From the IMG/VR virus record IMGVR_UViG_3300043409_001877, positions 32,001-96,000 of that record: a stretch of DNA of 64,000 nt, one strand, 5' to 3'. The notes below the pieces were generated by a model. That model saw only the letters and a program-made list of their open reading frames with translations. It made no database searches and was not told the origin of the DNA. This document shows, in pieces, positions 30,021-49,580 of the stretch. Each line of letters opens with the position of its first letter. Within the stretch, counting starts at the first letter, position 1. The DNA comes from a virus. The translations under genes and the position numbers were made by a program.

Positions 30021-33000
30021 TTAAAGTTGTCTGCCTAAACCAGTAGGTTTCACCACACCACCACTATAAACATCCCCAAAACTAAAAGCAGATTCTTTAA
30101 TAATATCATTTACTTTTTTAGACTCTTCTTCTTTTAATCTTTTTTCTAATAATATTCTAACCCTTTCTTGCTCTTGTTCAACTGGTCTTACATATCTTTC
30201 AAATAAAACTGCGTGCTCAACCAAGGGATTGCCTGGTAAATATTCATCATTTAATACATCTAAATCAGCTAACACACGATAAACATAAGTTCTTATAAAT
30301 TTATTTAAAAAATAATACATGCTAGGAGTGTATTTAATATTTAAAAATTCAAAAAATTTTATAACAATTGTCGCATATAAATCAGTTAAATTAACATCAA
30401 TCACACCACGTTTAGTATTTGGGTCATACTTAGTAAATAATTTATTTACCATATATAAACCGTTTAAATAAATAATACCATCTTTTTCTGCTTTTGTAAC
30501 TGACGTATACGGTGCAATATATGTATCACCAAATAAAGCTTTTCTTGAAAAATATCTTATAGTATCAGTATCGTCAACAGTTTTTCCTAGGTCGGTGGCT
30601 ATTTCACTATAAGTCATTTTATTTGAAAATAATATTTCTGGTTGGGTTATTAAAGTATGTAATGATAAATCAGGTGTTGATTCATTATAATATATTGAAT
30701 TACTTGGTGAGTAATTCGTATGAACAATCGTGTCAGAGCAAAATTCATCAATAACAGAATATGTTTTATCTTTTTGTGATAAAGTTAAAGCGACATTTAA
30801 AAATTTAGATAAACCAATTTCAGCCATAAATTCGTAATTATACATTGAGTTACCAATTAAAGCCAAATTAATTTCTTCACCACTTAATTTTATACTTGTT
30901 TTGGGGTCTGTAAATTCTTTAATTTCATCATACGTAACAACAGATGATGCTAACATTAAACTTTTTAAGTTAAAACCTTTTTTAATATATGTTTCACTAC
31001 CAAATTTACAAAAATCTAAAAATAAACTTTTAAAATGAGTTAGTTGTGTAAAATTTAAAGAATCTAATAAATTAGCTATTTTAAATTGTTCAAAATAACC
31101 AGTTTTATCATACTCTATATTATCACTCACTGAGCTGACGTATAAATGATTTGTTTTAAAATAATTCCAACCATAAATATTTGAAGTTAATTCATCGATA
31201 CCAGATTTATTTTCGTAAATACCACCACCAAGAACACTATCCATAGCTAAATTTGAACCAACTTTAGTATTATCAAACCATAAAAATCTAGTTGTGTTTT
31301 TTAAAATGGTGTGATTATCAAAAGATGATGGATCATTAAGGAGTACCCCTCTATTAAATTCCTTATTCATTAAATATAAAGATTTATTTGGGTTATTTAA
31401 ATTTAAATTACCGTTTTTTGAATTGTATATACCAGTTAAAACATCTACTTTACTAACATCAAAATATAGATTTGTAACAACTTCAGATGTGAGAAAAGCG
31501 TTTGGGTGTAAAAAATCCATAGCCCAAGATAGGGCAGCAAGAGCTGTAGATGCGCCTTTGGGATCGCATAGTGTTAAATTTTTATATTCATCATCTTTAA
31601 ATTTATTGGCTTGGGCTAGACCAACTGTAGCATTTTCTAGGTCTGGATTGTAGGTTACTTTGTCATTTGAATCTTTATATAATAGTTCGGATAACTTTGT
31701 GATATTAGTATCGTTAATACCTCTTTGTATAAAATTTATATTACCTAATTTTAATCCAGAACCAGGGACATCAGATAACCATGGGCTATGTAATAAATAA
31801 TTTGGTGATATACTACCACCACAAGATGGGTATAATAAATATGATGCTTTATTATCAACTTTATTAAATTTATCACGAAAATTAATTTTTTCTAGTGTCC
31901 AAAGGTAACTCAGGAAATCAGTTAAACTATCTATTTGTTGTGTTAATGTGTTAAAACTAGAGTTTAATGTCTTATCTAAGGCTTCTGGTAAAACTGTTTG
32001 ATATAATGTGTGTGATGGTTTATCTATGGTATTAGTAGTTGCTCGGTACCCATAACTTAGTCTACAATCAACACTAAAAATATTGGGTATATCTAATTTA
32101 GAACCAGCAGCCCCATAAACACTATCATCTCTAATTAAATAAGATTTTGGGTTTTCATTTTTAAATGATGTAAAAAATACGTGTGAAACTAAAAAATATA
32201 AATCAAATAAATCAGTGGCTATAAGTGGCGCTACGGTTAATCTTCTAAAATCAGCGTTAAATTGTGAGTCAATATTTTTAACAGAAGATAATACAGTAAT
32301 AGCTTCTTTTAACGCTTTTTTATCAGCAATACTACCACTTAAAAAATTGGCTTTTAATTTTGAAAAAGCTATGAATGCTTTTATTATTGATTTTTGAGAG
32401 TTTGGATAAAAATTTGGGTCTAATTTTTCTGGGTGTTTTTTTAACCCATTTGTTGCATTACTTAACTCTGTCTTAATATCATCTATTTTATAATTAAAAT
32501 TACCAATATAACCATTTCTATAAAAAGCTGTAAATTCAATATCATTTGAATCATATGTTTTTATTGGTTTAATTATACCAGAATGTCCACCAGCAATAAC
32601 GTGTGGTTTACCATCGTTTTTTAAATCAGTTGTACCACTTAAATAATCACCAAACATAACTTTATTATAGTGATTTAAGAATTTATTTTGTATACCGTAA
32701 CCAACTGGTGGCATGGCAGACTTGTGTGGTATTGAAATTTTTTCTACAATATCTACTTTACCACCGTTTGTAATGTCGTACCCAGTTTTGATATCAAAAT
32801 CAGTTTCAAGATCAGATGCGTTAGTTTGCATAAAATCACCATAAACACTTCTGTTTAAAATCCTAACGGATGGGTAATACAATCTTTCCAATACTGGCAT
32901 TACACCACCAGTTGATCCGTATAGTGTAGGTCTCCTATATAGATCAACATGATTGTAAATATCATTACCTGTTTGTGTTGGATCATATTTTACTTTATCT

Positions 33001-48051: not shown

Positions 48052-48086
48052 GAGCTTTTATTGTTTATTATAAATAGTTTTAAATT

Positions 48087-48112
48087 AAAAAAACCCACGA
48101 AATTGTGGGTTT
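48087..48112 (-). terminator. Rho-independent terminator after the chaperone pair
   Basis: Stem aaacccac / gtgggttt with a flanking A-run. Confidence 0.75.
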
Positions 48113-48116
48113 AGTT

Positions 48117-48365
48117 TTATTTTCTTTTAGAGTTAGCTTTTGCTTGTTCTCTTTCTCTATGGTCTTTAACTTTTTTGTTTTCATCCATTAGAATATCAAT
48201 AAAAGCCCTTCTTTCGTATACTGGCATATGTAGTATGTCAGCGTAACTAAAATTACCGTGTTTTATAAGAACATAGAATTCGTAAAGAACGTCTTTCTTA
48301 TAAGTCGAGGTAGGGCCAAAGAAACTTTGAGGTAATTGGAAGTTCACCAAAAAAAAATTCACCAC
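48117..48365 (-). CDS. T4 gp51-like / gpT-like chaperone segment, probably expressed as a frameshift fusion
   Basis: LYEFYVLIKHGNFSYADILHMPVYERRAFIDILMDEN resembles the gp51 pattern (..L..H..YS..E...M..WER..Y...L). It has no ATG before residue 47 and overlaps the upstream ORF by 68 nt in the +1 frame. Confidence 0.7.
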   Translation of the reverse strand: MVNFFLVNFQLPQSFFGPTSTYKKDVLYEFYVLIKHGNFSYADILHMPVYERRAFIDILMDENKKVKDHREREQAKANSKRK

Positions 48366-49050
48366 TAGGTGCTTGTATGTTAATGTCCAAATCTAAACCA
48401 GGTTCATTGTCGTTAATGTACTTTCGTAATTGACCTGAGTCGCTAACTGGCATTTGATCAATGAATCCTTGAATCTGTGCTCTGTCCCTTGTCCCTTCAA
48501 TTTCAGTGATCTGTGCAGCTAATCTCATTGTTAATAACTGTGAAATAGCATTGGTACCTAATTTTCTACGTCTAGCTTCATCTTCTTTAACTAATTTATC
48601 ATCTTCATCAGCTGTTAAGTATCTGAATTTAATTTTCTTCTTAGTTTTAGGTAAAAAGAAATCACATTCCCCATTTTCGTCAGGTTCAAGTGTAATCTCT
48701 TTTGAAATGAATTGACTTAAATCAATCTCTGTTTCAAATTTACTACCAGTCTTAGGGTCTGTAAGTTCAACTGGGTACATTTCACCGTAACCCGTAGCTC
48801 TTAAAAAGAATAAGATTGCATTTTTATCCCCAGAAAGCATTTGACCTGGTTTAATATCCTGATCGATAACTTTTCTATCCAATAAAACATCAATAACTTT
48901 ACCATTCTGTAAAAGGTTTGGTGAGGTTAAGATATTTTCATCAGCAGCGGTCAAATAAGCCACTTTAACGGTTGATTTTTTATTTTTGTAGAATCTACCT
49001 TGGGAAGGTAAACTAATCACGTCATGCGCTGGTTCCATCATTGTATCCAT
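48298..49050 (-). CDS. Tail/baseplate assembly chaperone, T4 gp26-like
   Basis: ISLPSQG..Y...V.VAYLTAADENIL...GDKNAILFFLRATGYG..Y; FFLPKTKKKIKFRYLT..DE; EPGLD. Confidence 0.82.
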   Translation of the reverse strand: MDTMMEPAHDVISLPSQGRFYKNKKSTVKVAYLTAADENILTSPNLLQNGKVIDVLLDRKVIDQDIKPGQMLSGDKNAILFFLRATGYGEMYPVELTDPKTGSKFETEIDLSQFISKEITLEPDENGECDFFLPKTKKKIKFRYLTADEDDKLVKEDEARRRKLGTNAISQLLTMRLAAQITEIEGTRDRAQIQGFIDQMPVSDSGQLRKYINDNEPGLDLDINIQAPSGEFFFGELPITSKFLWPYLDL

Positions 49051-49181: not shown

Positions 49182-49580
49182 ATGGCTAAAAAGAAAGGTA
49201 AAATAGGTAAATTATTTAAAAAAATGAAAGGTACGTCAAATCTTGAAGTATCTTTTGCTGATTTGCTTGATAAATTGGGAGTTAAATATGAGCAACACTT
49301 TGTATTTAAAAAAAGAGAATATGATTTTTTATTGAATGATCATAATATATTAATTGAAACACATGGTTGTTTTTTTCATTGTTGTAAGGAACATAACCCA
49401 GAAGCTAAATACGCATTCCAAAGAAAAAATTTAAAGAATGATCAATACAAAGTAAAATTGGTTAAATTTGATAAAACCTATACTTTATTGGTAATTTGGG
49501 AACATGAGATAGAAAAGAAAAAATTACTAACCGAAAAAATAAATACCTTTATTGAAAAGTATACGGTACTTAATGGATAA
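49182..49580 (+). CDS. Vsr/DUF559-like PD-(D/E)xK endonuclease
   Basis: TSNLE...YEQH..EYDF...ILIETHGCFFH...ND..K...LLVIWEHEI; on the opposite strand to the tail genes. Confidence 0.75.
   Translation: MAKKKGKIGKLFKKMKGTSNLEVSFADLLDKLGVKYEQHFVFKKREYDFLLNDHNILIETHGCFFHCCKEHNPEAKYAFQRKNLKNDQYKVKLVKFDKTYTLLVIWEHEIEKKKLLTEKINTFIEKYTVLNG

Follow-up and report, generated by a model that had tools for sequence, protein, structure and literature searches.

A probable +1-recoded gene of the gp26/gp51 family, and putative tail assembly chaperone gene, in an uncultured giant phage

The stretch of DNA analysed here, referred to as the window (64,000 nucleotides (nt); positions 32,001 to 96,000 of IMG/VR virus record IMGVR_UViG_3300043409_001877), belongs to an uncultured giant phage with a myovirus tail module on the minus strand of the window. 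Two overlapping open reading frames (ORFs) lie between the tail tube gene and the gene in the tape measure position of this module. ORF1 contains a PF12322 domain, the domain of T4 gp26 and gp51, and ORF2 is a small ORF in the +1 frame that probably forms one recoded gene with ORF1. The features concerned are as follows (positions in the window; aa, amino acids):

53590-50495, minus strand: sheath gene, 1031 aa
50137-49649, minus strand: tail tube gene, upstream of ORF1 (phrog_4542, 2e-30)
49050-48298, minus strand: ORF1, putative short chaperone form with PF12322 (T4 gp26/gp51) domain, 250 aa
48392-48117, minus strand: +1 frame, open stop-to-stop, 91 codons plus stop, overlapping ORF1 by 95 nt
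48365-48117, minus strand: ORF2 as called mechanically, 82 codons, GTG start
48357-48349, minus strand: T9 run, which starts an invariant 20-nt block T9-GGTGAACTTCC (48357-48338)
48324-48316, minus strand: candidate family-wide +1 site TTT CTT TGG, within AAG TTT CTT TGG (48327-48316)
48120..48326, minus strand: conserved ORF2 domain, from the F-F-G motif, 69 aa, like the C-terminal part of gp51
48081..48112, minus strand: intrinsic terminator-like hairpin with T tail, directly 3′ of the ORF2 stop
47413-44366, minus strand: gene in the tape measure position, 1015 aa, called from its size, position and repetitive sequence

ORF1 matched Pfam PF12322 with 31.8 bits (gathering cut-off 24.5; E 1.4e-7) over profile positions 12-201 of 219, and phrog_150 'baseplate hub' at 3.4e-11. 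It is the only PF12322 gene in the source record (141 kb, estimated to be 47% complete). A megablast search against cultured phages gave no match. A preliminary description of the locus, made from the letters of the window, had proposed that the two ORFs are fused by a programmed +1 (or −2) frameshift, and the arrangement that it reported was confirmed: ORF2 starts 685 nt from the ORF1 start (3n+1, that is, the +1 frame) and overlaps ORF1 by 68 nt. The first ATG of the ORF2 frame lies 24 codons beyond the ORF1 stop, within the conserved core, and the terminator-like hairpin with its T tail (48112-48091) follows ORF2, with none found directly after ORF1, both in agreement with that description. 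The two shift sites that it named, the T9 run and AAG TTT CTT TGG, are likewise present.

Loci containing both domains were collected from cultured phages, IMG/VR and one metagenome scan, and in all of them the domains were found by frame-blind hidden Markov models (HMMs). The metagenome scan was anchored on ORF2, not on ORF1; an alignment of ORF1 relatives (A1) was too diverse to serve in locus scans, and a contig scan with the ORF1 of Bacillus phage SP-15 as query gave no match. Relative to ORF1, the ORF2 domain was in the +1 frame in 134 of the 140 loci and, when the loci were clustered at 50% ORF1 identity, in 21 of 22 clusters, with stop-to-stop overlaps of 23-128 nt. These counts argue that the +1 arrangement is not due to chance. 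The other loci comprise a single clade with a −1 relation and two loci in which ORF2 has its own ATG, so that the frame offset, which the preliminary description had put forward for comparison in homologues, was conserved nearly throughout. ORF1 identity across the survey goes down to about 25%, which means that the arrangement has outlasted nearly all sequence similarity.

Sheath gene, tube gene, PF12322 gene, small ORF and tape measure gene follow each other in this order in the window and in phages of five host genera, and a tube gene was found upstream of ORF1 in about 60 related loci. In the cultured relatives, among them Flavobacterium phage immuto, Bacillus phages SP-15 and HSE3 and Microcystis phage Mel-JY01, the downstream gene is annotated as a tape measure gene; Flavobacterium, Microcystis, Bacillus, Listeria and Streptococcus are among their hosts. 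A profile of the ORF2 family matched 1551 representative proteins and 3484 clusters at 90% identity; among the matches listed, none of these clusters had a precomputed Pfam domain or a functional name.

Past the ORF1 stop, the ratio of nonsynonymous to synonymous polymorphism (pN/pS) in the window clade was 0.23 in the +1 frame and 1.6 and 1.2 in the other two frames, and it was 0.29 in frame 0 of ORF1. These values bear on the question of whether a homopolymer length error has split a single 310-aa gene, or whether ORF2 is a decaying remnant. A T8 run would put the ORFs in frame, and rare single-ORF homologues exist; however, all 25 independent assemblies of the clade (the window and 24 from metagenomes) contained exactly T9, which settles the doubt about T9 length raised in the preliminary description. 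Besides, the +1 relation is found in 134 loci, mostly without a long homopolymer, ORF2 is under purifying selection, and the ratio of short to long forms is about 3484 to 5. An artefact of this kind is thus very improbable.

A second alternative is that no recoding takes place and that ORF2 is a separate gene starting at GTG (48347-48345) or TTG (48350-48348), with the U-rich tract as a landing site without a Shine-Dalgarno (SD) sequence. Both codons lie within the invariant block and are present in every member of the window clade, gene callers choose GTG (P0096), and a free-standing ORF2 with its own ATG is found in two lineages (L049 and L056). Against this, in many other lineages no start is possible ahead of the core. 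Loci L040, L042, L047, L058, L061 and L066 contain neither ATG, GTG nor TTG ahead of it, which excludes independent initiation of ORF2 there. A GTG that follows a U run and lies out of frame inside a translated ORF would be expected to initiate only weakly. Furthermore, the frame relation and the UUU_Y sequence described below would have no reason to be conserved, and in the lineages where ORF2 truly starts on its own, neither the overlap nor the slippery TTT is left. We regard independent initiation of ORF2 in the window phage as unlikely.

The C-terminal motif of ORF1 was found to be [DE]-[LI]-P-x-x-x-x-F-[FL], and the +1 reading of the bases at its end gives F-F-G-[LP]-[TS], with which the ORF2 domain begins. 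Of the 134 +1 loci, 130 had an in-frame UUU_Y (UUU followed by U or C) where the F-[FL] codons align. In the largest cluster (73 +1 loci), TTT-YTT-TGG-CCT was invariant at the synonymous sites of both frames, and adjacent synonymous sites varied freely. The first Phe codon was TTT in 73/73 of these loci (background 0.89) with only T or C as the next base, and the Pro codon, whose third base is read in the +1 frame as the second position of the Leu codon, was always CCT (background 0.45). TTT CTT TGG was also invariant in the window clade (25 loci, ORF1 identity 68-100%), and relatives from Bacillus and Streptococcus phages showed exactly UUU_CGU. UUU_Ynn is reported to be especially prone to +1 shifting in bacteria (Atkins et al., PMC5009743), and the shift site of influenza PA-X is UCC_UUU_CGU (PMC5009743).

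In several lineages the opening of the +1 frame comes late, just a few codons ahead of F-[FL]; in the L040 clade, only 23 nt separate the last +1 stop from the ORF1 stop (GGC TTC TTT TGG CCT GAC GAA TGA). This late opening, together with the lack of a start codon in several lineages, implies that the frame change must fall at the F-[FL] codons. Within the window clade, the stretch from T9 to TTTCTT showed a pN/pS of 0.12 in frame 0 and 1.15 in the +1 frame, with Q, R, L or P at one +1 codon. Compared with the value of 0.23 in the +1 frame further downstream, this argues that the +1 reading begins at TTT CTT T.

The preliminary description had left the choice between its two sites open. TTT CTT TGG was found to be part of the family-wide UUU_Y pattern, and T9 is restricted to the window clade, where it stays in play as a second site. 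If the fusion were made at T9 (48357-48349) instead of at TTT CTT TGG, its junction would read ...SGEFF-LVNFQLPQSFFG..., and it could be made by a ribosomal +1 shift at UUU_U (there are two UUU_U sites), by −2 slippage, or by slippage of RNA polymerase giving U8 or U11 transcripts. Homopolymers of at least nine bases are classic slippage sites for bacterial RNA polymerase. The T9 run and the next 11 nt were invariant in 25/25 clade members, and T9-GGTGAACTTCC contains six consecutive frozen synonymous sites, the longest such run in ORF1 (background 12% of codons; next longest run, three). In addition, every clade member has a +1 frame that is already open ahead of T9; a synonymous change of ATT to ATA would close this frame and was seen in none of them.

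On the other hand, relatives at 33-38% identity have no T9, in several lineages a +1 stop falls only a few codons short of the F-[FL] site, and the +1 codons between T9 and TTTCTT change radically, as shown by the values above. A shift at T9 would also replace the family-conserved L-P-I-x-x-x-F strand, which natural in-frame fusions have kept. The family-wide evidence thus favours TTT CTT TGG over T9 as the predicted site, and a fusion made at T9 is considered possible but doubtful. As for other causes of the constraint on the T9 block, RNA folding, SD spacing and promoter spacing were considered and none was found to fit. An SD-like reading of GGUGA was rejected since its spacing of 18 nt is too long, and a Bacteroidota-type promoter was rejected with a spacer of 23 nt compared to about 20.

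Departures from the +1 relation were analysed as natural controls. The only −1 clade consists of four loci (L004 and L037-L039; overlap region at about 4690-4770 in L004 and about 2690-2760 in L037, L038 and L039) and was shown to contain the canonical heptamer T_TTT_TTC at the same Phe codons; in L037-L039 the −1 frame opens two codons ahead of it. An ATG overlaps the ORF1 stop (TAATG) in L004 and L039, where termination-reinitiation is a possible alternative. In two marine loci ORF2 is free-standing, with its own ATG just past the ORF1 stop and an 18-residue leader (L049, 2714-3031; L056, 2717-3004). An internal Q-F-L-G in these proteins aligned with the F-F-G motif, and their first Phe codon is TTC, so that the slippery TTT is gone.

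Long forms encoded by a single ORF were also found. P0111/P0366 (from two independent sources), P0194 and P0237 contained PF12322 and were joined to the ORF2 domain exactly at F-[FL]-G, the junctions reading ...NFFG..., ...QFLG... and ...EFLG.... There are about five such long forms compared to 3484 short clusters, mostly singletons or near-singletons; they are known here as proteins, and some of them may be homopolymer errors, only the P0111/P0366 lineage having been seen twice. No IMG/VR locus was found for P0111, and L078, an IMG/VR relative of P0194, was rejected as an in-frame fusion because it proved to be another +1 pair. Taken together, these departures indicate that the fused architecture is real and that its junction is F-[FL]-G. 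Selection appears to hold the frames apart in nearly all lineages, as a need for two products in a set ratio predicts.

A few other proteins contain the ORF2 domain in unusual surroundings. It is N-terminal in P0369 (325 aa), it is joined directly to an N-terminal part of ORF1 in P0368 (190 aa), and it lies behind an unrelated N-terminal part in P0187 (144 aa). P0100 (2512 aa) showed 11 short ORF2 matches that are suspected to be low-complexity. All four may be assembly artefacts.

In T4, gp26 (208 aa) and gp51 (249 aa) both matched PF12322 over the whole domain and are divergently transcribed; gp51 alone has about 48 residues beyond the domain. Both are listed as hub assembly chaperones, and gp51 is needed for assembly and is absent from the particle (Leiman et al. 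2010, PMC3004832). The profile phrog_634 'baseplate hub assembly catalyst' matched a T4-like gp51 at residues 147-247 (3.7e-24), and it also matched ORF2 proteins (P0112, 9.8e-8; P0105, 6.6e-4; P0120, 0.011; window ORF2, 0.011-0.02). All of the ORF2 matches fell at profile positions 67-120, a region that is also matched by T4-like gp51. In hhalign, the ORF2 profile aligned with gp51 columns 208-254 (8.7e-4), and the in-frame fusion P0111 covered positions 4-279 of 282 in phrog_150, on which gp26 ends at 235. AlphaFold models of the fused homologue (predicted local distance difference test, pLDDT, 91) and of a T4-like gp51 (pLDDT 91.6) showed the same order of elements after the last beta-hairpin, namely short helix, long helix, short helix and long helix; the ORF2 domain is predicted to form helices. 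The nearest named ESM Atlas clusters to ORF2 were Gp51_C (PF28602; 0.91) and P2 GpE (0.90), which serves as a lead only.

At the level of single sequences, BLASTP of ORF1 or ORF2 against T4 gp26 and gp51 gave no match. Plain scans of HMMs against sequences did not rank the expected partner first, either with the ORF2 profile against six-frame T4 or with the gp51 C-terminal profile against the six-frame window, and hhalign gave no significant match between the A7 subfamily and gp51. By the profile and model comparisons, ORF1 corresponds to the domain common to gp26 and gp51, and ORF2 to the C-terminal part of about 50 residues that is specific to gp51. The link to the gp26/gp51 pair made in the preliminary description is thereby upheld. 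Its picture of a gp26-like protein fused to a gp51-like one needs refinement, as both paralogues contain PF12322 and ORF2 resembles the C-terminal part of gp51 only.

The short form of the window phage would thus resemble gp26 and the long form gp51, both within PF12322. In contrast, T4 has two divergently transcribed paralogous genes and no recoding. Window ORF1 further differs from the T4 proteins in having no zinc-ribbon cysteines and in an identity below BLAST detection. When compared to alignment A1, it was shown to have neither of the two CxxC pairs of the zinc-ribbon-like hairpins, with D-P-K-T-G and A-P-S-G-E instead; the pairs are kept in many ORF1 relatives and in T4 gp51. In the T4 record (L036, 5229-6882), genes 27 and 28 share 56 nt, with gene 28 in the +1 frame; the two genes are annotated separately, with a note that the N-terminal sequence of gp28 was determined.

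An AlphaFold model of the fused homologue P0366 (31% identical to ORF1) was compared exhaustively with 48,161 Protein Data Bank (PDB) representatives. The top three of the 48,161 were 3FGX (Z 6.4), 3KLU/YqbN (Z 5.3) and 2OB9/HK97 gp13 (Z 4.7), all with modest Z scores. The 3FGX match aligned 90 residues within model residues 1-101, and the 3KLU match covered model residues 129-232. All three structures are phage tail assembly chaperones (PMC9603447). That three chaperones should take the top three places for this predicted model is hard to ascribe to chance, and it suggests that the PF12322 domain may be composed of two chaperone-like halves. A Foldseek search of the fused model against the PDB and a profile search of PDB sequences gave no match.

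A tail assembly chaperone frameshift is conserved in long-tailed phages, with T4 named as an exception (PMC5009743); for lambda gpG/gpGT, the frameshift was described by Levin 1993 and Xu 2004, as cited in the same review (PMC5009743). The window locus is similar to lambda G/GT in several respects. The gene lies between the tube and tape measure genes, it would give a short product and a C-terminally extended one, its overlapping ORF has no start codon, and the candidate slip site is near the 3′ end. The model of its fused homologue gave modest matches to the solved chaperone folds 3FGX, 3KLU and 2OB9. The position, the overlap without a start, and the conserved frame and site all support the connection with G/GT drawn in the preliminary description. 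The differences from lambda are a shift that would be +1 at UUU_Y instead of −1 at a heptamer, an ORF1 of 250 aa, with two apparent chaperone-like halves, that is roughly double gpG in size, and a lack of sequence similarity to gpG or gpT.

Regarding the slip itself, the candidate site is of the type found at E. coli argI-type sites, Yersinia YopN-TyeA and influenza PA-X (PMC5009743), with the same tetranucleotide, re-pairing of tRNA-Phe in the P site and no need of a stop codon. It differs from these in its inferred use in a phage tail chaperone gene and in that no hungry A-site codon or stimulator was identified. A slip of tRNA-Leu from CUU to UUU is formally possible as well, since the CUU_UGG_C of the window resembles CUU_UGA_C of prfB (RF2). 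However, the combination that marks prfB-type +1 sites (CUU_U, an in-frame stop and an SD-like stimulator) was not found: with UGG in the A site, the locus has no in-frame stop, no SD-like sequence 3 nt upstream, or otherwise upstream of 48324, and no autoregulatory logic. Among myoviruses, P2 gpE/E+E′ and haloarchaeal HSTV-2 (PMC5009743) have chaperone pairs made by recoding; they are compared here by recoding type and not by homology. HSTV-2, with a probable +1 frameshift, is a precedent for the +1 direction, unlike P2, in which the shift is −1.

From these results, it is probable that a recoded long form is made from ORF1 and ORF2. According to the explanation that we favour, ORF1 and ORF2 would together form a single recoded gene, and its product would be a tail (hub and tape measure) assembly chaperone of the gp26/gp51 family. 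Most ribosomes would end at 48298 and give the 250-aa short form, and a minority would shift +1 in the overlap and run to 48117, giving a 310-aa long form (243 + 67) composed of the PF12322 domain and a helical domain like the C-terminal part of gp51. The pair of products of 250 and 310 aa had already been proposed in the preliminary description, and a +1 relation in 134 of 140 related loci supports it. At UUU_C (48324-48321), peptidyl-tRNA-Phe would re-pair from UUU to UUC, with the junction ...ITSKF-FGPTS.... Predicted junction peptides are ...ITSKFFGPTSTYK for UUU_C, ...ITSKFLGPTSTYK for CUU_U and ...GEFFLVNFQLPQSFFGPTSTYK for T9. Provided that recoding occurs, UUU_C has a little better than an even chance of being the site, T9, which lies 24 nt upstream, comes after it with a clearly smaller but still substantial share, and a shift elsewhere would be rather unlikely. 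If lambda G/GT is taken as a guide, the two forms may act together in a fixed ratio in tail assembly and would not be virion parts.

The anatomy, its conservation and the homologies were observed directly; the shift, its site and its efficiency are deduced, as is the function, from position, homology and fold. Several points weigh against this explanation. As the survey loci share descent, their counts show how persistent the arrangement is and cannot be read as separate trials. Because F-F/F-L is itself a conserved protein motif, coding alone would account for part of the UUU_Y pattern. The strongest synonymous constraint in the window clade was found in the T9 block and not at UUU_C, and a +1 frame that is open from before T9 in every clade member fits a shift at T9 or a start at TTG/GTG. 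No stimulator of the shift was detected, with neither an SD-like sequence 3 nt upstream nor an A-site stop or obviously rare codon, and no conserved RNA structure was found around the candidate sites (z −0.44; the consensus fold consists of invariant pairs only). ORF2 is a separate gene in two lineages, which shows that fusion is not obligatory for function. As for the chaperone fold, the Z scores are modest, and the model of T4-like gp51 did not retrieve 3FGX, 3KLU or 2OB9, because its list was filled by helix-loop-helix matches to the C-terminal domain.

More broadly, we are inclined, with some reserve, to regard the PF12322 'baseplate hub subunit' proteins as the tail assembly chaperones that have been missing from T4-type myoviruses and from many jumbo ones. 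Their short/long pair would be met in four interchangeable ways, which we consider rather likely jointly with the chaperone reading: a +1 shift at UUU_Y in most lineages, including the window phage, a −1 shift at U_UUU_UUC, a separate small gene, and paralogues as in T4 26/51. No published report of recoding in the PF12322/gp26/gp51 family was found in open-access full text. Tail chaperone frameshifting itself is known; what would be new here is a +1 shift in a G/GT-like chaperone gene, in a family that is not annotated as chaperone.

If this is true, T4 would no longer be an exception to the G/GT rule, with gp26 and gp51 as the equivalent pair, and thousands of genes annotated as 'baseplate hub subunit' and 'hypothetical protein' would be mis-annotated single recoded genes. 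The family would also provide a very large natural set of UUU_Y +1 sites without a stop codon, and in it +1 and −1 solutions could be compared at the same codons as they occur in nature. The prediction can be tested directly in cultured relatives.

Two further ORFs were found beside the genes described above, and tRNA genes were not found within the window:

49182-49580, plus strand: HNH/Vsr-like endonuclease ORF, 132 aa
48051-47413, minus strand: 212-aa ORF in the interval from the terminator to the tape measure gene, of no family

The 212-aa ORF matched no PHROG family and showed only a weak, sub-threshold match to Pfam TDH; a smaller unannotated ORF was found in its place elsewhere (L002, 5021-5236; L078, 6972-7352). 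The HNH/Vsr-like ORF matched phrog_13076 (2e-9) and phrog_559 'HNH endonuclease' (2.6e-9), with weaker matches to homing endonuclease families. It is situated between the tube and chaperone genes, antisense to the tail operon, and is probably a mobile insertion.

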